Assembly (NCBI GenBank): GCA_963745035.1
Contig: CAVUVW010000020.1
Coordinates: 1 to 64,000 of the forward strand
Origin: an uncultured delta proteobacterium
Lineage (GTDB): Bacteria; Desulfobacterota; Binatia; UBA9968
DNA: 64,000 bases
Direction: 5' to 3'
Positions 1 through 29,590 of the stretch are shown one piece after another (the stretch's first letter is position 1; every line of letters begins with the position of its first letter). The notes below the pieces were generated by a model. It did not search any database, was not told where the DNA came from, and saw only the letters and a list, made by a program, of their open reading frames with translations. The translations under genes and the position numbers were made by a program.

Positions 1-48
1 TGCGTCAGCTAGGCTGAGAGTCAGAATAGCAACAACAAGGAGTTTTGC

Positions 49-2710
49 ATGGCCACCGATCCGATCTGCGGCATGACCGTGGATCTCAACAGCGCCGCCG
101 GCAAGCACGACTATCACGGGCAGACGTATTATTTTTGCAGCCGGCACTGCGTCGACAAGTTCAACGAAAACCCGGCAAAGTACGTGGGAGCGGCCGGCGT
201 CGGGCGCGCTCCGGCGGCAAGGGAGCGTGGCGACATAGGGAAGAGCGTTACCGACCCGGTCTGCGGCATGACCGTAGATCCGGTGCGCGCCGCCGGAAAA
301 CAAAAACACGGAGAAGAGACATATTACTTTTGCAGTCGGCGATGCATGGTGAAATTCATCGCGGACCCTGAAACGTTCCTCAAAGAGCCGCGACGGCATG
401 AGGCTCACAAGCATGAGACCGTGGCGAGTGCGGTAGATCGCGCAGCAGAAACTGATCAAGCTCCTAAATCGGACGAAGGCGCGGGCGCATACGTCTGCCC
501 GATGGACCCGGAGGTGCGCGAGTCCAAGCCCGGCGCTTGCCCGAAATGCGGCATGGCTCTCGAGCCTGAAACGCTTGCCGCGCCCGCAACACGGATCGAA
601 TACGTTTGCCCCATGCATCCGGAAATCGTCCGCGACGAGCCCGGCTCATGTCCGATCTGCGGCATGGCTTTGGAACCGAGAACGATAACTCTCGAAGACG
701 CGCCGAATCCCGAATTGGTCGACATGACCCGGCGGTTCTGGATCAGCGCGGCCCTTTCGCTTCCCCTTTTCATGCTGGCGATGTCGGACATGCTGCCGGG
801 CCAACCTTTGCAGCATTGGGTCTCACCGCGATTGCTCACGTGGATTCAGTTTGCCCTCGCCACGCCGGTCGTGCTGTGGGGCGGCTGGCCATTCTTGGAG
901 CGCGGCTGGCAATCCATCGTGAATCGCAGCTTGAACATGTTCACGCTCATCGCCATCGGCGTGGGCGCCGCTTACGTGTACAGCGTCGCAGCGACGATCT
1001 TCCCCAGTATCTTTCCGGAATCATTCTACGGGCACAGCGGCACCGTCGCTGTTTATTTCGAAGCGGCGGCCGTCATCACCACCTTGGTTCTGCTCGGACA
1101 GGTGCTCGAACTGCGCGCACGCAGTCAAACCAGCAGCGCTATCAAAGCGCTTCTCGGCTTGTCGCCGAAGACCGCCCGATTGCTGCACGACGACGGCAGA
1201 GAAGAAGACGTCCCGTTGGATCGGGTTCAGGCCGGCGATCGTTTGCGCATTCGTCCCGGTGAAAAAGTTCCGGTGGACGGCGTCGTCCTCGAGGGCGCGA
1301 CTTCGATCGATGAATCGATGGTCACCGGCGAGCCGATTCCTGTCGAAAAATCAAAAGGCCGCAAGGTGACGGGCGGCACGGTCAACACCACCGGCAGCGT
1401 CGTCATGCAGGCCCAGCGCGTCGGCAGCGAAACGTTGCTGGCGCAGATCGTGCGCATGGTCAGCGAAGCGCAGCGCACGCGCGCGCCGATACAGCGGCTG
1501 GCGGATATCGTCTCTGCCTATTTCGTTCTCGCTGTTCTCGCGGTCGCCGCGGCGACCTTCGTGATCTGGTCGCTCTTCGGGCCCGAGCCGCGCATGGCCT
1601 ATGCCATCGTCAACGCCGTCGCCGTGCTGATTATCGCTTGTCCCTGCGCGCTCGGGCTGGCAACCCCGATGTCGATCATGGTCGGCGTCGGCCGCGGCGC
1701 GACTGAGGGAGTGCTCATCAAAAATGCCGAAGCTTTGGAAATTCTCGAGAAAGTGAACACATTGGTTGTCGACAAGACCGGGACCTTGACGGAAGGAAAG
1801 CCGCAGCTCTCGGAAATTGCCGCTGGTGCGGACACGGATCGCAAAGAGATCCTGCGCCTGGCGGCGAGTATCGAGCGCGCCAGCGAGCATCCGCTCGCCG
1901 CCGCTATCGTCGGAGCAGCCGAGAAAGAAGGAGTGCGGCTTGCGAATACCGAGGAGTTCCGCTCGCTCACCGGCAGAGGAGTCACCGGCAAAGTGGATGG
2001 CCGCTCTGTCGCATTGGGCAATATCAAACTGCTCCAGGAGCTGTCGATTGACGCCGGACCTCTCCGCGCGCGCGCCGAGGAACTGCGCCGCGAAGGACAT
2101 ACCGTGATGTTTGTCGCCATCGACAACCGAGCGGCTGGACTGGTGGCGGTTTCCGATCCAATCAAGCAGTCGACCCATGAAGCAATCGAAATCTTGCATC
2201 GCGAGGGTATCCAAATCGTCATGCTGACAGGAGACAGCCGGACTACGGCTGAAGCCGTCGCCCGGCGGTTGGGCATCGATCAAGTGGAAGCCGAAGTGCT
2301 GCCCGAACAAAAAGCGGCGGTGATCAAGCGCCTGCAGGCAGAAGGACGGATCGTGGGGATGGCCGGAGACGGAGTCAACGACGCTCCGGCGCTCGCGCAA
2401 GCGCAAGTCGGCATCGCCATGGGCACCGGCACCGACGTGGCGATCGAAAGCGCGCACATTACACTCGTCAAAGGTGATCTGCGCGGCATCGCGAAAGCGC
2501 GCCGGCTGAGCCGCGCCACCATGCGCAACATCCGGCAGAATCTTTTTTTTGCATTCGTTTACAACGTGATGGGAGTGCCCATCGCAGCCGGTGCTTCTAT
2601 ATCCGTTCTTCGGTATTCTCTTGAGCCCGATCATCGCCAGCGCGGCCATGACGTTCAGCTCCGTCTCCGTGATTGCGAATGCGCTGCGCTTGCGGCGAAT
2701 CAGGCTTTGA
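49..2710 (+). CDS. copA: Cu(I)-translocating P1B-type ATPase with two N-terminal YHS domains and CPMH-type metal-binding domains; frameshift near 2593
   Basis: DPxCGM/YYFCSxxC YHS repeats, [35 protein letters not shown]. The shifted frame continues [31 protein letters not shown] to TGA at 2708-2710. Confidence 0.95.
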
Positions 2711-2930
2711 CCCCAGGCTTTCGATCACGGAATTTCCTGGACTTGCAGCTTCACCGCGTCTTTCTCACATAGTTCTCCGCATCTAGGTTCCGTTTTCTTC
2801 AGCTCGTGCGCCGAACGACAAGTTTGGCGTGAAAGGCATTGCCTTGCATTTTTTTGTACTTGGCGTGCTTTGCGTATTGGCGCTTATCTGGATCTCAGCA
2901 ATATTTGCATGTGAATAAGGAGCAACGACA

Positions 2931-3260
2931 ATGAAAACAATCATCATCATGGTAATTGGGCTTGTAGCGCTTGGCGGAACATGGGGAATCGCCCAGGAAC
3001 TGAAGAAGGACGGTCGTTCCGGAATGTCGGGGATGATGAAAGACATGATGCAGGAGTCTAAGCCGGATGACGGGTCCAGCCGCATGATGCACCACATGGG
3101 CGGGATGATGGGCATGATAAAGATGATGGAACAGTGCAACGAGATGATGAAGTCCGGGCACCATCACAACGAGAAAACCAAGGAACAGCAACCAGAAGTA
3201 ACGCCGGTCGGAGCAGGGGCTGAAGTTCCCCTGCTCCTTCGCAAGGGAGTACGAAGATGA
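2931..3260 (+). CDS. Small secreted Met/His-rich protein (probable copper-binding)
   Basis: AAGGAG RBS, signal peptide, MSGMMKDMM/MMHHMGGMMGM; directly after copA. The C-terminus may be frameshifted. Confidence 0.7.
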   Translation: MKTIIIMVIGLVALGGTWGIAQELKKDGRSGMSGMMKDMMQESKPDDGSSRMMHHMGGMMGMIKMMEQCNEMMKSGHHHNEKTKEQQPEVTPVGAGAEVPLLLRKGVRR

Positions 3261-3492
3261 TGATGGACGGCGGAAGCATGATGGGAATGATGATTTTCAT
3301 GTTTCTTTTTGGATTGCTGCTGATTTTCGCAGTTGTATTGATCGTTGTTGCCGTCGCGAAATGGCTATGGGGCTCGATGCCGTCCGCAATGCACACTCGA
3401 GAGAATCCTTGGAGGTTCTCAAAACACGGTACGCGAAAGGCGAGATCGGCCGAGAGGAATTCGAGACCATCAGACGAGATATCGAGAAATGA
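3257..3492 (+). CDS. SHOCT-domain membrane protein (frameshift near 3408)
   Basis: Met-rich N-terminus and one TM helix; shifted frame gives LEVLKTRYAKGEIGREEFETIRRDIEK*, a typical SHOCT motif. Confidence 0.85.
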
Positions 3493-3518
3493 CCTCGTTG
3501 TTTCAAGAAAGGATTTGT

Positions 3519-3812
3519 ATGTCGAATGAGGTTAGTTCAATAAAAGAAAAAGAGAGTTCGCAAAGTCCGTCAACCGTCATGGCGTCCGCTGAAAGCGGTT
3601 CGGGCTGCCATATGCACGCACGCGGCTGGCTCAAGGGCGGCCTCGCTATGGCGATCTGCTGCGCCGCCCCGCTTCTCCTTTTCTCCGCGATCGCCTTTTT
3701 TGGCTTGTCCTTAGGAGCGCTTGCGAGTGGCGCGCTGAGCCTTGCGGCGCTGCTGGCTTGTCCCGTCGGCATGTTTTTAATGATGCGCATGATAATCAAA
3801 GACAAACAGTAA
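3519..3812 (+). CDS. Small membrane protein with CC and ACP motifs (DUF2933/MerT-like, metal related)
   Basis: GCHMH, AICCAAP, LLACPVGMFLMM, two hydrophobic segments. Confidence 0.65.
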   Translation: MSNEVSSIKEKESSQSPSTVMASAESGSGCHMHARGWLKGGLAMAICCAAPLLLFSAIAFFGLSLGALASGALSLAALLACPVGMFLMMRMIIKDKQ

Positions 3813-3835
3813 AGCCGCTATCTTCAGGAGTTTAG

Positions 3836-4465
3836 ATGGCAATGGAATTTGCGTCACGGGAGATATCGGCAAAATACGATCGATTCGCTCCGTGGTACGA
3901 TTGGCTGGAAGGGATTCTGAATCTGCTCGGGCTGAGCAGGTTACGGCGGATACTTGTCCGCCAAGCCTCCGGCAAAGTCCTCGAAGTCGCCGTCGGGACA
4001 AGGAAGAACCTGAGTTATTATCCGCGGGATTGCCGGATCATTGCCCTGGACCTCAGCAGGCAAATGTTGAAAGTCGCTCGGGACCGAGCATCAAATCTAT
4101 CCATGTCTGTTTCGTTTTTGGTGGCGGACGCGGAGGCCCTGCCGTTTCGCGACAACACTTTCGACACAGTAGTCTCGTCGCTCTCGACGTGTACATTTCC
4201 GAATCCGGTCGCAGCGCTTCAGGAAACGGGGCGAGTTTGTGGCGCCACCGGAAAAGTCTTGCTGTTGGAGCATGGCCGAAGCGATCGCGAATGGCTTGCC
4301 GGCTGGCAGGACCGACATGCAGATCAATTTGCAAAGCCGCTCGGTTGTCATTGGAATCGTGAACCGTTGGAGCTTACTAAGGATGCCGGGTTGAAAGTCG
4401 TTCGAGCGCAACGAAATTTCTTTGGAATTTTTCACCGGATAGAAGCCAGACCCAGCGTGCCGTAA
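3836..4465 (+). CDS. Class I SAM-dependent methyltransferase
   Basis: VLEVAVGT, LDLS, DAEALPF..FDTVV, LEHG motifs. Confidence 0.9.
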   Translation: MAMEFASREISAKYDRFAPWYDWLEGILNLLGLSRLRRILVRQASGKVLEVAVGTRKNLSYYPRDCRIIALDLSRQMLKVARDRASNLSMSVSFLVADAEALPFRDNTFDTVVSSLSTCTFPNPVAALQETGRVCGATGKVLLLEHGRSDREWLAGWQDRHADQFAKPLGCHWNREPLELTKDAGLKVVRAQRNFFGIFHRIEARPSVP

Positions 4466-4525
4466 CGTTATGGGCTAGTCTCCAATCTGATGAGGCGGAT
4501 GATCGAACAAGAAAGGCGGAAGCTG

Positions 4526-4757
4526 ATGGCCGGAATAAGTTACGGTTTATAGCCAGCCGGGCTGACTATTCTGCGACAGGGCGAAGGAGTTTCTTTCGCA
4601 ACGGGGCGTTGTTTTTGAAGAGAAGGACATAACCAAAGATCCTTCCGCAGTCGAAGAGCTTGAGAGGCTAAGCGCGATGACGACACCGTGATTGTCATCG
4701 ACGGCGGGGTCAGTCATTGGCTTCAATCAAAAGCGGCTTGAAGAACTACTTGCCTGA
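4526..4757 (+). CDS. Glutaredoxin-like (NrdH/YruB-type) putative selenoprotein with a UxxC active site; absent from the ORF track
   Basis: Reads VTVYSQPG-TGA(4563-4565)-LFCDRAKEFLSQRGVVFEEKDITKDPSAVEELERLSAMTTP, then after indels VIVIDG..VIGFNQKRLEELLA*. One extra base lies between ATG 4526 and the main frame. Confidence 0.85.
4581..4599 (+). promoter_or_regulatory. Putative bacterial SECIS hairpin of the glutaredoxin-like gene
   Basis: GCGAAGGA-GTT-TCTTTCGC: 8-bp stem (one G-U pair) with a GU-starting loop; the stem begins 16 nt after the UGA. Confidence 0.7.
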
Positions 4758-4856
4758 ATCGAAAGCGCGCTCGCGCCATACTATTAGTGAGTCTTCAGGC
4801 GGGGCATACGGAAACCGATTCAACTATTAAATGTTTACCATAATGGAGCATAAGGA

Positions 4857-5310
4857 ATGAATAGACGGGATTTTTGCACCAGAGGATTCTTGGTACTCGG
4901 TACTATCGCGATTACCGGCTGCGGAGGATTTGAGGCGGCGGAGCATCGCTACAAGTTAGCTCCGGAAAATGTTCTGCCAACCGACATAGCGAAGGCCCCA
5001 GCCGAGGTCCGCGAGGCTTATCGCTTCGCTATCTTTAACCGCGATACCCTCCGCTACATCCCATGTTATTGCGGCTGCGGCTCCGACGGGCATACAAGTA
5101 ATGCTTCGTGTTATTTTAAAGACAGTTCGACACCCGCAAATCCGGTCTTCGATCGAATGAGCCTTGCTTGAGACATCTGCATAGGCATCACGCGTGACGT
5201 GATGAAAATGATGGATGAAGGCAAGAGTCTAAAAGAAATGCGGGCGCAGATCGAGAAGACTTACAGCAAGTACGGGCCGCCGACGCCAACCCTGCCCGAC
5301 ACCTTCTTGA
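4857..5310 (+). CDS. PCYCGC-motif Tat lipoprotein, putative selenoprotein (UxxC)
   Basis: MNRRDF Tat motif, ITGC lipobox, IPCYCGC. In-frame TGA at 5169-5171 is followed by DICIGITRDVMKMMDEGKSLKEMRAQIEKTYSKYGPPTPT. The true stop is probably near 5310; as sequenced the frame runs to 5453. Confidence 0.85.
5186..5204 (+). promoter_or_regulatory. Putative bacterial SECIS hairpin of the PCYCGC gene
   Basis: CATCACG-CGTGA-CGTGATG: perfect 7-bp stem with GU at loop positions 2-3; the stem begins 15 nt after the UGA. Confidence 0.7.
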
Positions 5311-5347
5311 TAAAAGCGCTTCTACCTCGTGATTCGGCTTGGTACGC

Positions 5348-5722
5348 TCAGAAAGGCTGGAACAACTCAATTGGGTTACCGGATGGGTCCTCGATCAAGA
5401 CTTGCTTGCCGCCGTTTCCCGTTACAATTGCATTGCGGAAGCGCGCTCCTTGACCTTTGAGCTTGTCGACCGTGGCCTCCAAATTCTCGACCTCAATCTG
5501 AATTCGGTTCCAGCCGCCCGGAGTAGGGACTTGGTTATCCGGCATCGCTTGTCCAGCGCCGCCGGCACCTGGTCGATTGAGCAACAACTGTACGTCGCCG
5601 CGCGACAAACTAGCGAAACCGGGCGCCGGGTGCATGTCGACTTTGAAGCCGAGCATATCGGTGTAGAAGGGAATGACTGCGTCCACGTCGTTAACGATGT
5701 ATCGAACGCTGACCTTGCTCAT
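5348..5722 (-). CDS. VOC/glyoxalase family protein
   Basis: VRYIVNDVDA..FY, GGWNRIQIEV, EDPSGNPIELFQP. Confidence 0.9.
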   Translation of the reverse strand: MSKVSVRYIVNDVDAVIPFYTDMLGFKVDMHPAPGFASLSRGDVQLLLNRPGAGGAGQAMPDNQVPTPGGWNRIQIEVENLEATVDKLKGQGARFRNAIVTGNGGKQVLIEDPSGNPIELFQPF

Positions 5723-6059
5723 GATTTTCACCTCCACAGGACGAATTTCGCTATCCCGCTATAGCTGCATACGTTGATACTTAATCACAGTTTCTGTTAT
5801 GTCGAAATACGATATCGAAAAACAGAATGCTTAAGCGAACCGACAGCAAAAATTTCATCAAGCAACTCCTTTCGGCCGTAAAGTGCTCTTGGCCGCCCGT
5901 CAAAACTCAGCGAGCCTTCCGGCGAATTGTTCGAGGAGTAATGAAAACCGCGCGTTTAGGCTGCTGCTCCACTAGCTCCATGATCAGCTGGACACTTTTA
6001 ATGATTCTTCTGAAGTCATTGGCAGGTCGCGAAACTGCCCGCACTGGTTGCTGAGCGCT

Positions 6060-7301
6060 ATGAATGAACACATCGAGACAACCGCGGATACAGCCGTCGC
6101 TACACACAGACGCGTTTCACTTTTTGAGATCCTTTGGGTCTCCACGCGGTTGGGCCTGACCTCTTTTGGCGGTCCGATCGCTCACCTCGGTTATTTTCAC
6201 GAGGAATACGTCAAGCGCAGAAAGTGGATCGACGAGCAAAGCTATGCCGATCTTGTCGCCCTGTGCCAGTCTTTACCCGGCCCGACTAGCAGCATGGTGG
6301 GAAGCGCAATAGGTTTTACCCGCGCCGGCGTGGCCGGCGGAATCGTACACTGGCTCGGCTTTACGCTACCGTCGGCGCTCGCATTGATCGCGTTCGCCTA
6401 CGGAGTCGAAGTCGTCGGTGCGGCAAGTGGTGCCGGGTGGTTGCATGGATTGAAACTGGTTGCCGTGCCGGTCGTTGCGCTGGCTCTCTGGGGAATGGCA
6501 CGCACCCTTTGTCCCGATCGAGAGCGCGCGACGATGGCCATTTGGACGGGCCTGGTCGCTTTGGTCTGGCCTACCGCGGGTGGGCAACTCCTCCCTATCA
6601 TTGCCGCAGGCCTTATCGGCTGGTACCTTTTTCCACCGGCAAACACTCCTCCGGCACTGCATATCCGGGTGCCGATCAGTCACTGGGTTGGCATTGTTTG
6701 TTGGGTGCTCTTCTTTGGATTTCTGGTCGGGCTCCCCTTGATCCGTCAACTGGTTTCCAGTCAATCGATAGCTGTTTTCGATAGTTTCTATCGCGCGGGT
6801 GCTTTGGTTTTCGGCGGCGGGCATGTCGTTCTGCCGCTTTTGCAGGCCGGAGTGGTGGCTCCCGGATGGGTCACCAACGAACAATTCGTCGCTGGCTACG
6901 GTGCCGCGCAAGCCGTTCCCGGCCCGCTTTTTACCTTTGCCGCTTATCTCGGATTCGTCATGCGGCCAGAGCCCAATGGCTTGGCCGGCGCAGGTCTCGC
7001 GCTCGTGGGGATTTTTCTCCCAGGCCTTCTGATGACAGCCGGCGCGCTGCCTTTTTGGGATTCGCTGCGCTCGCGCGCCGGTTTTCAATCCGCAGTCCGC
7101 GGCATCAACGCCGCCGTCGTAGGTCTTTTGCTTGCGGCCTTTTACAATCCGGTGTGGATCAGCGCGATTTTCACGCCGCTAGATTTCGGGCTCGCCATTG
7201 TCGCTTTCGGATTGCTCGCTTTTTGGAAGCTGCCGCCCTGGCTGGTGGTTGTTTTGACCGCTGCAGGGGCAGAACTGGTCGCTTGGACGTCTTCACTTTG
7301 A
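6060..7301 (+). CDS. chrA: Chromate efflux transporter (long-chain CHR)
   Basis: GLTSFGGPIAHLGY, LPGP, GALVFGGGHVVLPLL, AQAVPGP. Confidence 0.95.
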   Translation: MNEHIETTADTAVATHRRVSLFEILWVSTRLGLTSFGGPIAHLGYFHEEYVKRRKWIDEQSYADLVALCQSLPGPTSSMVGSAIGFTRAGVAGGIVHWLGFTLPSALALIAFAYGVEVVGAASGAGWLHGLKLVAVPVVALALWGMARTLCPDRERATMAIWTGLVALVWPTAGGQLLPIIAAGLIGWYLFPPANTPPALHIRVPISHWVGIVCWVLFFGFLVGLPLIRQLVSSQSIAVFDSFYRAGALVFGGGHVVLPLLQAGVVAPGWVTNEQFVAGYGAAQAVPGPLFTFAAYLGFVMRPEPNGLAGAGLALVGIFLPGLLMTAGALPFWDSLRSRAGFQSAVRGINAAVVGLLLAAFYNPVWISAIFTPLDFGLAIVAFGLLAFWKLPPWLVVVLTAAGAELVAWTSSL

Positions 7302-26105: not shown

Positions 26106-27063
26106 TTGAAAACGAATCAAGCCGACGCCGTCTATCTCGCACATACAAAGCCAAGTCAGAGGCCGGGCTTCCGGCGCTAACACTCCAGAAAATTCGCGAG
26201 CGCACCATCGAGTTTGGCATGTTACTCTGCGCGCTTTTTTCGGTCGCGATTACCGGCGGTATCGTCTGGGTGCTGCTGGTCTACGAGTCCTGGCATTTTT
26301 TTGAGAATGTATCGATCATTGATTTTCTCACTGACACGCAATGGACGGTTCTGTTCGAGAACCCGCGCTATGGCATCATGCCGTTGGTCACCGGAACCCT
26401 TGTGACCTCGGGCATCGCTCTGCTTGTGGCGTTACCGCTGGGAACCACCATTGCGATCTATTTGAGCGAATACGCCAACACCACGGTTCGTGAAATCTTA
26501 AAGCCGATTCTGGAGTTATTGAGCGCCGTGCCGACAGTGGTTTTCGGCTACTTCGCGTTGCTGTTTATCACGCCCATGCTGCAAAATGTGCTGCCCGGCT
26601 CTGCCGGGGTTTAACATGTTAGGTCCCGGTATTGTCATCGGCATTATGATTGTTCCCTATATAAGTTCTCTCAGCGAAGACGCCATGAAGGCTGTGCCGG
26701 TGCATATTCGCGAAGGCTCCTACGCCATGGGCGCCACTCGTTTGCAAACCGCGCTTCGCGTGCTCATTCCCGCGGCATTCTCCGGTATCGCTTCCGCCTA
26801 CGTGCTGGGATTCTCGCGCGCCGTCGGCGAAACCATGGTGGTCGCCGTGGCCGCAGGCACTCAGCCCAATCTGACGTTGAACCCCATGGAAGGCGCCGCC
26901 ACGATCACGGCGTACATCGTGCAAGTGAGCCTGGGCGATCTGCCGCACGGCAGCATCGCTTATCAAAGCATCTTTGCGGCCGGCTTGACCCTGATGTGTG
27001 ATGACGTTGATTTTCAACATCGGCGGCTATCTGCTGCGGAAACGCTTCAGGGAGATTTACTGA
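26106..27063 (+). CDS. pstC: Phosphate ABC permease (indels; start uncertain)
   Basis: AIYLSEYA, ELLSAVPTVVFG, SEDAMKAVP, SRAVGETM. Confidence 0.92.
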
Positions 27064-27064
27064 T

Positions 27065-27990
27065 ATGCAAAAGCCGGCTCAATCCGAAGTTGAAAAGAGC
27101 GTTGCAGCGCAACAAGACTCGCGACAAGCTTTTTGTCGTGTTCGGCTTGCTCGCGACTTTCGTCGGAATGCTTACGTTGGCAGCCTTGCTCGCCGATCTA
27201 GCCATCGACGGATTGGCGCGTCTGAAGCCACACTTCTTTACTTCGTATCCCTCGCGCTTTGCCGGCCAAGCAGGGATTTTGTCCTCTTGGGTCGGCACCA
27301 TTCTCGTCATGATCGTCACGGCGGCAACGGCGATCCCGATGGGCGTCAGCTGCCGGTGTTTACCTGGAGGAATATGCGCCCAAAAACTGGTTCACGGCGC
27401 TGATCGAAATCAACATCGCCAACCTCGCCGGCGTGCCCTCGATCGTTTACGGCTTAATGGCGCTGGGGCTGTTCGTCTACCAGTTCGGCTTCGGGCAAAG
27501 CGTGCTCTCCGCCGGGCTCACCCTGGCGCTGTTGATCCTACCGATCGTCATCGTCGCGACCCGCGAATCCATCCGCGCAGTTCCGGCCAGCATGAGAGAA
27601 GCCGCCTATGCTCTCGGTGCGACAAAATGGCAAACGACAAGCGATCATGTCTTGCCCTATTCCATGGGCGGCATCTTGACCGGCGTCATTATCGGTCTTT
27701 CCCGCGCTATCGGCGAAACCGCGCCGCTGATCACCATCGGCGCCCTGACTTTTATCGCATTTCTTCCTGACTCGCCGATCAAAGCGGAGTTTCCCTTCAT
27801 CTCCTTCGATTGGATTTGGTCGCCCTACTCGGTTATGCCGATTCAAATGTTTAACTGGGTTTCCCGGCCGCAGGCCGAGTTCCATCTCAATGCGGCAGCC
27901 ACGGGTCTGGTGTTGATGGTCATGACCCTGGCGATGAACGGCATTGCGATTTATTTTCGTTACCGCTTCCGCAAGCGCATCAAATGGTAG
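27065..27990 (+). CDS. pstA: Phosphate ABC permease (indels)
   Basis: [35 protein letters not shown]. Confidence 0.92.
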
Positions 27991-28033
27991 AGCCACGGAC
28001 GTGAAAATGACAAATGCACCTGATGGAGGTAAG

Positions 28034-28889
28034 ATGAACTTGCAAGAAGCGGCAGAAACGCTCACTCCGGGCCGCCCCTCGATGAAAGCCATGGACACCT
28101 CTGTCATTACAGCGGTAAAAACCGACGAGCCGGCCAACAAGATTTTCAGCGTGGACAACGTCGAATTTCTACTATGGCGAGAAGCACGCGCTGAAATCCA
28201 TCAATTTGGAAATCGGCGAGAAGAAATCGACCGCCTTCATCGGCCCCTCCGGTTGCGGCAAGACCACCCTGCTGCGCTGCCTGAATCGGATGAACGATCT
28301 GGTGCTCAACACCAGGGTCACCGGCGAGATCAGGCTCGACGGCAAGAACATCTACGATCCATCCATGGACGTGATCAATTTGCGCCGCCGCGTCGGCATG
28401 ATCTTTCAGAAATGGAACCCGTTTCCGAAAAGCATCTACGAGAACATCGTTTACGGCCTGCGCATCGTCGGCGTGAATAATCGCGCCTATCTTGACGAAG
28501 TGGTCGAGAAGAGCCTGCGGCGCGCCGCCCTATGGGAAGAGGTCAAAGATAGTCTTCACAAGAGTGCAGCCGACATGTCCGGCGGCCAGCAGCAGCGCCT
28601 GTGCATCGCCCGCGCGCTCGCGGTCGAGCCCGACGTGCTGCTCATGGACGAGCCCTGCTCGGCCCTCGATCCGATCTCCACGGCGAAGATCGAAGAGCTG
28701 ATCCACGAGCTCAAGGAAACCTTCACCATCGTGATCGTCACCCACAACATGCAGCAGGCGGCGCGCGTGTCCGACTACACCGCTTTTTTCTATCTGGGCG
28801 AGTTGATAGAGTTCGGCGAGACCGGCAAGCTTTTCACCGCGCCCGAGAAGCGCCAGACCGAAGACTACATCACCGGTCGTTTCGGTTAA
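28034..28889 (+). CDS. pstB: Phosphate ABC ATPase (indel near 28168)
   Basis: [39 protein letters not shown]. Confidence 0.95.
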
Positions 28890-28903
28890 GACGGAGAAGC
28901 GTT

Positions 28904-29590
28904 ATGCCGACGGAACACACCGATAAAAAATACGAAGAACAGCTCAAGAAGCTGCGCGAGGAAATCCTCTACATGGGCGGGCTGGTGGAGGATCAGATTC
29001 AAAAGGCGGTGAAATCACTGGTGGACCGCGATTCCGAGATGGCGCCGGTGATCATCGAGCGCGACCGCGAGGTCAATCGACTCGACGTCGAGATCGACGA
29101 TTTGTGCATCAAGCTTTTGGCGCTGCACCAGCCGGCCGGCCGCGACCTGCGCTTTATCACCACCGGCCTCAAGATCACCACCGACCTCGAGCGCATCGGC
29201 GACATGGCCGTGAATATCTGCGAGCGCGCCCTGGAGCTCAATCAGGAGCCGCAGCTCAAGCCCTACATCGACATCCCGCGCATGGCGCGCATTTCCCAGC
29301 GCATGATCCGCGAAAGCCTCGACGCTTTCGTGCGCGAGGACACCGAGCTGGCGCTCAAAGTGTGCAAGGACGATGACGAAGTGGATCAGCTCAACGCGCA
29401 GATTTTCCGCGAGACCTTGACGTTCATGCTGGAAAACGCCCAGACCATCAGCCGCGCCACCAAGATCAGCTCGGTGTCGAAATATCTGGAGCGGATCGCC
29501 GACCATGCCACCAACATCGCGGAGATGGTGATCTTCATGGTCAAGGGAAAGAGCATTCGCCACATGAAGGACCTGCCTCCTTCGGTTTAA
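28904..29590 (+). CDS. phoU: Phosphate signalling protein
   Basis: LHQPAGRDLR, DLERIGD, LERIADHATNIAE. Confidence 0.95.
   Translation: MPTEHTDKKYEEQLKKLREEILYMGGLVEDQIQKAVKSLVDRDSEMAPVIIERDREVNRLDVEIDDLCIKLLALHQPAGRDLRFITTGLKITTDLERIGDMAVNICERALELNQEPQLKPYIDIPRMARISQRMIRESLDAFVREDTELALKVCKDDDEVDQLNAQIFRETLTFMLENAQTISRATKISSVSKYLERIADHATNIAEMVIFMVKGKSIRHMKDLPPSV

Follow-up and report, generated by a model that had tools for sequence, protein, structure and literature searches.

Two described selenoprotein families come closest to the genes reported here. The family table of a 2026 review (PMC13188914) gives Glutaredoxin (Grx; PF00462), with the motif UxxC in which U stands for selenocysteine (Sec), as a selenoprotein family, and that review cites Kim et al. 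2011 for the Grx of Clostridium oremlandii. The same table places OS_HP4, with the motif UxxC, under PF13798 as a selenoprotein family, and OS_HP4 with UxxC also appears in a 2022 review (PMC9312934). The 2007 Olavius symbiont paper, which is cited for OS_HP4, names OS_HP1-3, and OS_HP4 was not found in its main text. A PCYCGC lipoprotein of Parageobacillus was reported in a 2026 paper as a protein of unknown function (PMC13068155). Among the NCBIfam models are the 'CYCXC family (seleno)protein' and several models of glutaredoxin-like selenoproteins. Here we describe two consecutive genes from a Binatia-type genome, gene 1 (a glutaredoxin-fold protein) and gene 2 (a PCYCGC-family protein), each with an in-frame TGA at the place of the first Cys of a CxxC motif.

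The window that we analyzed is the first 64 kb of a contig (CAVUVW010000020.1; C20) of the assembly GCA_963745035.1 (G000; 7.43 Mb in 28 contigs, completeness 92.6%, contamination 5.8%). Both genes are new members of catalogued selenoprotein families and not a new kind of system. An earlier sequence-only reading of the window had credited both with high novelty, which did not hold, since both families were already listed in the review table and in NCBIfam. The best explanation as a whole, to which we assign a probability of roughly 0.87, is that both TGAs are Sec codons decoded with the help of a hairpin downstream, that the two proteins have a role in a metal-related island, and that the single-base insertions and deletions (indels) in the cluster are assembly errors.

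Conservation of the TGA codons and of the hairpins behind them

The motifs PG-U-LFC and LA-U-DIC named in the sequence-only reading are indeed present, with the TGA codons at 4563-4565 in gene 1 and at 5169-5171 in gene 2, both on the forward strand. Gene 2 (4857-5310, forward strand; about 150 amino acids) belongs to the PCYCGC family PF13798, with 87.3 bits against a cut-off of 25. Its frame, read from the ATG at 4857, has 104 residues ending in ...FDRMSLA, followed by the TGA and then by DICIGITRDVMKMMDEG... A six-frame search of 61 related genomes produced 12 strong rows for gene 2 (G000 included), and all 12 had the TGA; U was in the same column, within the pattern ...M-S-[LI]-x-U-x-I-C, in 11/11 loci. 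When 15 named contigs were added, U occupied this column in 24 of 24 loci (those in which the CYCGC motif was located), which represent 20 distinct sequences at 33-84% identity. Among them are L023 and L025, of the unpublished genomes G035 and G005.

More distant homologues of gene 2 have Cys in place of Sec. A search against 1.84 billion representative proteins gave 1106 matches at E <= 0.001, of which the best 150 were examined. Among these 150, the representatives covering the region had Cys in the Sec column (C-x-x-C) in 126 of 133 cases, while 13 called proteins stopped just ahead of it, as would be expected of genes cut at the UGA. C70, C72, G73, C74, H79, C85, C105 (the Sec column) and C108 did not vary among 97 aligned sequences; the pair in gene 2 reads U105-x-x-C108.

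For gene 1 (4526-4757, forward strand; about 72 amino acids) the Glutaredoxin profile PF00462 gave 53.3 bits against a cut-off of 22.9, the broken frame of the assembled gene notwithstanding. The frame from 4539 reads VTVYSQPG-U-LFCDRAKEFLSQRG... Intact orthologues at 70-78% identity, with the motif PGU[LI]FC, were found in metagenome contigs (L072-L076). All seven close loci that cover the site had TGA in the Sec column; these are L072-L076 together with L078 and L080, the last two being more distant U forms. Cys was in this column in the distant homologues L079, L083 and L085, so that the pairing of Cys with UGA, which the sequence-only reading had suggested testing, was seen for both genes. 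We gathered 31 more distinct Sec-Grx-like sequences, and we observed that coding conservation persists downstream of both TGAs. Another Sec-Grx-like gene, a housekeeping one with PGUGPC or PGUPPC in the loci read, occurs in G000 as well as in each of the 61 relatives that were searched; its identity to gene 1 was 37-47%.

Each TGA is followed by a hairpin, as had been claimed. The hairpin of gene 1 (4581-4599, forward strand) has 8 bp and a GUU loop, starts 15 nt after the TGA and is encoded within A-K-E-F-L-S-Q. The hairpin of gene 2 (5186-5204, forward strand) has 7 bp and a CGUGA loop, starts 14 nt after the TGA and is encoded within I-T-R-D-V-M. Counted from the U of the UGA, they occupy positions 19-37 and 18-36, respectively. 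A scan of 4400-5500 with Rfam at E <= 10 gave three chance-level rows and no family of the selenocysteine insertion sequence (SECIS). Bacterial SECIS elements are short, and the lack of an Rfam match is unsurprising.

The covariation that the sequence-only reading had suggested looking for in these elements was present in gene 1, with one compensated pair, and absent in gene 2, where the synonymous sites were frozen instead. In 16 sequences of two Grx sub-families, 98.4% of the cells of the gene 1 hairpin were paired, compared to 42-80% with the 3' arm slid by one to three columns. At pair 20/36, 10 sequences had A-U and 6 had C-G, a compensatory change that amounts to the choice of an Ala or Glu codon together with a Ser codon in A/E-K-E-F-L-S; the observed covariation score was reached by no shuffle. 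In a third Grx sub-family (T-U-P-W-C), Ser AGC and Ala GCT made an equivalent hairpin with a U-A pair, its register shifted by one. In gene 2, 136 of 140 pair cells were formed among the 20 distinct sequences, and the I, T, D and V codons had an unchanging third base in 20/20. Outside the hairpin, synonymous variation was seen at equally conserved residues (Ile 7/10/3, Lys 9/10, Asp 12/8). The 63-nt fold of gene 2 had z = -2.98. In the most distant Sec homologue of gene 2 (L034) the peptide at this place is ITLDAY; a 5-bp hairpin is possible at the same distance by manual reading, and the computed minimum-energy fold pairs otherwise.

The machinery for Sec that the sequence-only reading called for was all found in G000: selA (523.2 bits), selB (346.9 bits, with the SelB winged-helix domain at 76.3 bits), selD (384.6 bits, with one in-frame TGA of its own) and a tRNA-SeC with the anticodon tca. 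In this assembly selB was in two frames. On the standard bacterial pathway, SelB with Sec-tRNA(Sec) would bind the hairpin 14-15 nt past each UGA and deliver Sec.

A genetic code with TGA as a sense codon was rejected, given that TGA ends gene 1 and several homologues of gene 2 and that the full Sec system is present. Within gene 2, TGA would be Sec at one site and stop 46 codons later; several of its homologues also end in TGA.

The same data bear on the explanation that the TGAs are ordinary stops or else Cys codons altered by nonsense mutation or by a base-call error, with the hairpins as by-products of the peptide. One substitution is enough to turn TGC or TGT into TGA, the assembly is error-prone, and the gene 2 hairpin lacks a compensatory change. 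However, TGA is in the same column in 24/24 PCYCGC loci that are as distant as 33-84% identity and in every close Grx orthologue covering the site, synonymous sites are frozen inside the gene 2 hairpin only, the gene 1 hairpin has one compensated pair, and the coding sequence is conserved past both TGAs. An artefact of one pipeline is also unlikely to recur across GTDB genomes, JGI contigs and ENA contigs. We consider this explanation extremely improbable. Because of the same-column TGA in orthologues, the Cys in distant homologues, the hairpins and the presence of selA, selB, selD and tRNA-Sec, the TGAs at 4563-4565 and 5169-5171 are, as far as sequence comparison can tell, genuine Sec codons, from which we infer the incorporation of selenium itself.

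Single-base indels and broken reading frames

The sequence-only reading overlooked the frame breaks in the assembly. Logan contigs from four metagenome runs (X1, X2, X6 and X7), each of a different study, were aligned to positions 1-6000 of the window. Contigs of the runs X1, X2 and X6, from three of the studies, covered the region at 95-99% likeness. We found one-base differences between the window and the contigs, each in at least two runs, at 5344 and at six positions that coincide with frame breaks (2597, 3184, 3406, 4685, 4710 and 5299). Further one-base differences were observed at position 26 (two runs) and at 2849 (one run). A homopolymer run was present at the 4685 indel only; the other indels were outside homopolymers.

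Three of the six indels are in genes upstream of the selenoprotein genes. The gene copA (49-2710, forward strand) codes for a P1B-type ATPase that translocates copper and has two YHS and two HMBD domains at its N-terminus (560.9 bits with TIGR01511, whose cut-off is 397; Pfam E1-E2_ATPase, YHS and HMBD). It has an extra base at 2597 that is missing from X2 and X6; as assembled, the conserved C-terminus is lost near 2600, and skipping the base brings copA to a stop at 2708-2710. The open reading frame (ORF) at 2931-3201 (forward strand), whose translation is a Met/His-rich small protein with a hydrophobic N-terminal segment and without a family match in a Pfam scan, has an extra base at 3184, again missing from X2 and X6; with this base skipped it stops at 3199-3201. 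The gene of a small membrane protein with a C-terminal SHOCT domain (3257-3492, forward strand; PF09851, 33.9 bits on 3361-3492) has its protein divided between two frames as assembled. Here X1, X2 and X6 have one more G behind 3406, and adding the base rejoins the gene, with the stop at 3490-3492.

In gene 1 the window, relative to X1, X2 and X6, is without a C behind 4685 and has one surplus base at 4710. The frame error between these two positions makes a spurious second in-frame TGA at 4689-4691 (forward strand). All gene 1 orthologues read TTPVI... across this site with no stop, the intact ones reading ...TTPVIVIDGEAVIGFNQKRLEELL... there. As assembled, gene 1 also has no in-frame start. 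The ATG at 4526, given as the start in the sequence-only reading, is in another frame than the Sec codon, and the TAA at 4536-4538 closes the Sec frame upstream. We infer a third break of the gene 1 frame between 4529 and 4538.

Gene 2 has a surplus base at 5299 that is missing from X1 and X6. As assembled, its frame continues to 5453, antisense to a glyoxalase gene, so that the end claimed for gene 2, 5308-5310, was out of frame; it proved to be the true stop once base 5299 is skipped, the gene then ending with the TGA at 5308-5310 and a TAA behind it as a tandem stop. The expectation that standard gene calling fails on both genes was borne out as well: gene 2 was split (4857-5171 and 5199-5453), and the forward strand had no ORF of at least 40 amino acids in 4526-4757.

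The breaks may be real. On this account the Sec codons are ancestral and genuine, the cluster is decaying in this strain, the indels are not errors and gene 1 is a pseudogene, as copA, the SHOCT gene and the C-terminal part of gene 2 may be too. This account fits the three disruptions of the gene 1 frame in about 230 nt, the decayed Grx remnant at the same relative place in L070 and the fact that of the indels only the one at 4685 sits in a homopolymer. On the other hand, single-base indels are spread over five of seven genes in 5.3 kb while the amino acid sequences are still well conserved, and the four indels in or just past genes 1 and 2 are missing from near-identical contigs of three other, independent metagenome studies. 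The Sec-containing SelD depends on selB, and this gene is split likewise, whereas rpoB is intact over 1375 codons in the same assembly. The selB gene lies at 316680-318567 of contig C17 (L009/L015), and its frame switches between about 317,873 and 318,124, probably as a result of another single-base assembly error. The cluster is moreover within the first 5 kb of its contig in a 28-contig assembly, and G000 looks like a long-read metagenome-assembled genome (MAG) with the cluster at a contig end. Consensus quality is usually poorest at contig ends. Since the contigs of three studies are without the indels, since selB is also split, and since the location is a contig end, we read the indels as consensus errors: the frame breaks are most likely one-nucleotide errors of long-read assembly or consensus and not biology, and real decay of the cluster in this strain is quite unlikely.

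Another region of the window has a similar appearance. The ORFs of the pstC/pstA/pstB/phoU region (26586-29590) overlap each other in different frames, and their Pfam matches are partial: a 394-amino acid ORF, for instance, aligns with positions 49-135 of the BPD_transp_1 profile through its residues 7-93 only. This pattern suggests, though not conclusively, that there may be more indels along the window.

The metal/redox island and possible roles of the two proteins

The genes named above as upstream neighbours, along with two more, are all on the strand of genes 1 and 2, and profile matches and ORFs bear out the order given in the sequence-only reading (copA, a Met-rich protein, SHOCT, a CC membrane protein and a methyltransferase). 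The fourth gene (3525-3812, forward strand) codes for a 95-amino acid membrane protein with a CC motif in the first predicted helix, of an unnamed family found mostly in Binatota. It had no match in Pfam or NCBIfam; the nearest atlas clusters were unnamed Binatota clusters (0.91 and 0.90), and DUF2933 (0.82) came up as a weak lead. The fifth gene (3836-4465, forward strand) codes for a class I methyltransferase dependent on S-adenosylmethionine, of the UbiE/Methyltransf_11 type (PF08241, 69.1 bits), for which no NCBIfam model reached its cut-off. Downstream of gene 2, profile matches identified a convergent glyoxalase-fold gene (5348-5737, on the opposite strand) and after it a chromate transporter gene (6048-7301).

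We compared the neighbourhoods of PCYCGC genes in the 15 named contigs, with flanks of up to 7 kb. These contigs are labelled Candidatus Binatia, 'Deltaproteobacteria' and Syntrophobacteraceae, with one Udaeobacter-labelled MAG. The methyltransferase was near the PCYCGC gene in 9 of the 15 loci, followed by SHOCT (5), the CC-motif protein (4), copA (2) and Grx (1). The sequence-only reading had linked the selenoproteins to copA; with 2/15 loci having copA within the flanks, the island link is not specific to copA. The methyltransferase homologue (64-77% identity) is also present in L072-L075; of all neighbours it is the one that recurs most constantly with the two selenoprotein genes. Homologues of the CC-motif protein have the methyltransferase or Grx next to them in L059, L061, L065, L070, L072, L074, L075 and L076, and in L072, L074, L075 and L076 the CC-motif and methyltransferase genes again adjoin orthologues of the ULFC-Grx. 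A PCYCGC gene lies 3.6 kb downstream of Grx in L075, with a weak 42% match in L073.

Both selenoprotein genes are thus part of one recurrent, shuffled metal/redox island in Binatia-type genomes. The proposed selenium-dependent module of two paired genes stood to this extent, but not as a pair, the one Grx among the 15 PCYCGC loci being a decayed remnant only (its frame truncated, with TAA in place of the Sec codon). We therefore rejected an obligatory adjacent Grx-PCYCGC pair, the genes being seldom adjacent. The remnant itself, at L070:4438-4560, is a ULFC-Grx flanked by a Met-rich ORF and by a membrane protein with the CC motif, with a frame shift and an early end besides the TAA.

The related islands have further genes of metal and redox type. 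A gene for a CDF transporter is directly upstream of the PCYCGC gene in L059, L061, L063 and L075, and the islands also hold genes for CusCBA-type RND systems, di-haem cytochromes c, TlpA/AhpC-like, DsbA-like and SCO1 proteins, a MerR-type regulator and MFS proteins. Directly downstream of the Sec-Grx gene in L074 (1956-2540) and L075 (2342-2926) we observed a gene for a membrane-anchored TlpA/AhpC-TSA-like thioredoxin-fold protein with an in-frame TGA in S-S-Y-U-P-E-C, which gene calling turns into two ORFs. This gene appears to be a third selenoprotein gene of the same island.

Pieces of the island also occur outside these genomes. The contig L058 (DASQUN010000182.1), labelled Candidatus Udaeobacter (Verrucomicrobiota), has the methyltransferase and an 81% identical Sec-PCYCGC gene, which suggests either that the island was transferred horizontally or that the contig was misbinned. 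Near-identical pieces of the island were found in sequencing runs of 7 studies, with a share of sampled words of 0.18-0.48 and with soil, rhizosphere, winery and outdoor samples among the recorded sources. Samples of these kinds thus widely harbour the island or its host. No RNA run was among the listed runs with island pieces.

The two proteins would work on different sides of the membrane. Gene 1, in translation, has no signal peptide. The translation of gene 2 begins with M-N-R-R-D-F, a twin-arginine motif, which is followed by a hydrophobic stretch and by I-T-G-C, a lipobox. The idea of a cytoplasmic Sec-Grx with an exported Sec-lipoprotein agrees with these features in the window; among the 24 gene 2 loci, most homologues retain RRxF, but the lipobox Cys is present in some only. 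The homologues end in ...PTPTPPVP and a stop. An AF2/AlphaFold model of gene 2 made from the 97-sequence alignment (predicted local distance difference test, pLDDT, of 89.5) is helical from residue 42, with a helix at 106-120 that begins directly after U105.

One residue near the U-x-x-C pair may vary along with Sec and Cys. The residue four before this column is His in 120 of the 126 Cys-type PCYCGC representatives and Met in 5 of them. The window protein has Met there (M101, codon 5157-5159), as have 9 of the 12 site-covering representatives that end before the Sec column; these 12 are truncated, presumably of Sec type, and mutually related, so that the Met/Sec pattern is a lead and not a statistic. 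Perhaps the Met/His and Sec/Cys states changed in concert; a clade effect could also account for the pattern.

A role can be proposed from these features. Gene 1 would be a cytoplasmic Grx of YruB/NrdH-like form, in which, to judge by the fold and the UxxC motif, the Sec of U-L-F-C attacks in selenol/thiol-disulfide exchange. The product of gene 2 would, less firmly, be exported in the folded state via the twin-arginine translocation (Tat) pathway and, in this copy, be lipid-anchored; its Cys3-His-Cys cluster may bind a metal or a cofactor before export, and U-x-x-C at the N-terminus of a helix could form a reactive or soft-metal-ligating centre in the periplasm. The two proteins, one on each side of the membrane, would then take part in the handling of thiophilic metals (copper first) or in the repair of metal-damaged thiols, which the gene neighbours make the most likely role.

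For gene 2 a role akin to that of CcmH has also been considered, as a periplasmic thiol/selenol-disulfide oxidoreductase that matures, for instance, the di-haem cytochromes c of the island. The top structural rows are periplasmic domains of CcmH. A VIA-align search of 48,161 chains placed one first, with a root-mean-square deviation of 3.3 A over 74/82 residues and a Z of 5.0, which is below the informative level for helical proteins and may reflect a common helical arrangement only. Foldseek gave TM scores of 0.51-0.53 (target-normalised) with an E of 2.8. The start of the modelled helix at U-x-x-C agrees with this role, and so does the presence of di-haem cytochrome c, TlpA/AhpC-like, DsbA-like and SCO1 genes in related islands. 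CcmH, however, is without a counterpart of the invariant C70, C72, C74, H79 and C85, and the gene 2 homologue is directly behind a CDF gene in four loci (L059, L061, L063 and L075). We regard a CcmH-type function as a possibility with well under an even chance.

A more far-reaching suggestion is that the island is a dedicated selenium-dependent system for a thiophilic metal in Binatia-type soil bacteria, with up to three selenoproteins in two compartments (the cytoplasmic ULFC Grx, the membrane-anchored U-P-E-C TlpA/AhpC-like protein and the Tat-exported PCYCGC protein) besides the constant methyltransferase and the CC-motif protein, and with a soft-metal site made of Met, Sec and Cys. We hold this unlikely. 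If true, the Met/Sec/Cys site of the PCYCGC protein, arising as Cys gives way to Sec and His to Met, would be tuned for Cu(I) or a similar ion and would be an uncharacterised type of selenoprotein metal site.

Several observations weigh against our overall explanation. With respect to decoding, selB is frame-broken in G000, so that Sec decoding would fail if the break were real. For gene 1, the 63-nt fold behind the UGA does not exceed shuffled sequences in stability (z = 0.17), and the gene 2 hairpin is nearly invariant, with no compensatory changes among the 20 sequences. With respect to the genes, the X2 contig has 138 other letters instead of 4395-4536, a stretch that takes in the assumed start of gene 1, and the comparison with contigs bears on the indels, not directly on the TGA at the two Sec sites. 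With respect to function, the proposed role of both proteins is drawn from their gene neighbours. A simple pattern found the RR motif in 19 of 133 family members, and its rarity weakens the case for cofactor loading before export. Finally, neither Foldseek nor VIA-align produced a convincing solved structural relative of the gene 2 fold; against the PDB, Foldseek had no match at E <= 0.001, the best E being 2.5.

Comparison with described families

Standard gene calling misses or splits both genes, as well as many of their relatives in Binatia-type soil MAGs. The locus also shows that Sec codons can be separated from assembly errors even where a long-read MAG is error-prone, both kinds of in-frame TGA being present within 130 nt. 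For biology, the result is a conserved metal-efflux-island context, with a constant methyltransferase, for two selenoprotein families, and for the PCYCGC family a testable residue correlation, Met with Sec and His with Cys. The island context, the Tat signal and the Met/His correlation were not found in the literature searched; Haft and Tolstoy 2025 (mSystems) may describe the neighbourhood.

The closest described relative of gene 2 is the CYCXC/OS_HP4 family (NF041379). It shares with gene 2 the PF13798 domain, the CYCGC motif, Sec as the first residue of UxxC, and Cys in this place in most homologues. The match to the NF041379 model, which has 90 positions, spans residues 49-136 of gene 2, but the scores, 50.3 bits for gene 2 and 56.2 bits for its orthologue L018, are below the cut-off of 90. 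Beyond the features of the CYCXC family, the gene 2 clade has a twin-arginine signal, a tail rich in Pro and Thr and, in many cases, a lipobox, and it has Met for the near-invariant His four residues before Sec. The periplasmic domain of CcmH (PDB 2hl7 and 2kw0) resembles gene 2 in being small and helical, with C/UxxC at the N-terminus of a helix; it differs in having no sequence similarity and no Cys3-His-Cys cluster, and a Z of 5.0 and a Foldseek E of 2.8 are weak scores.

Gene 1 is closest to the Sec-glutaredoxins (PF00462 with UxxC, such as the Clostridium oremlandii Grx), with which it has in common the fold family, Sec for the first Cys of CxxC near the N-terminus, and a SECIS immediately downstream. 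It is, on the other hand, a short YruB/NrdH-like form of about 72 amino acids with the motif ULFC and is located in a metal-resistance island. Its score with the YruB model TIGR02196 is below the cut-off of 88.55 (63.4 for the window, 75.5 and 70.6 for the intact L073 and L072). The Uxx-star family (NF041212, NF041211 and NF041114) likewise comprises small Grx-like selenoproteins of about 70 amino acids, and its profile aligns with residues 1-62 of gene 1. With NF041212, whose cut-off is 66, the window gene scored 52.7, L072 61.0 and L073 65.0 (just under), while the models of specific sub-families were missed by a wide margin.

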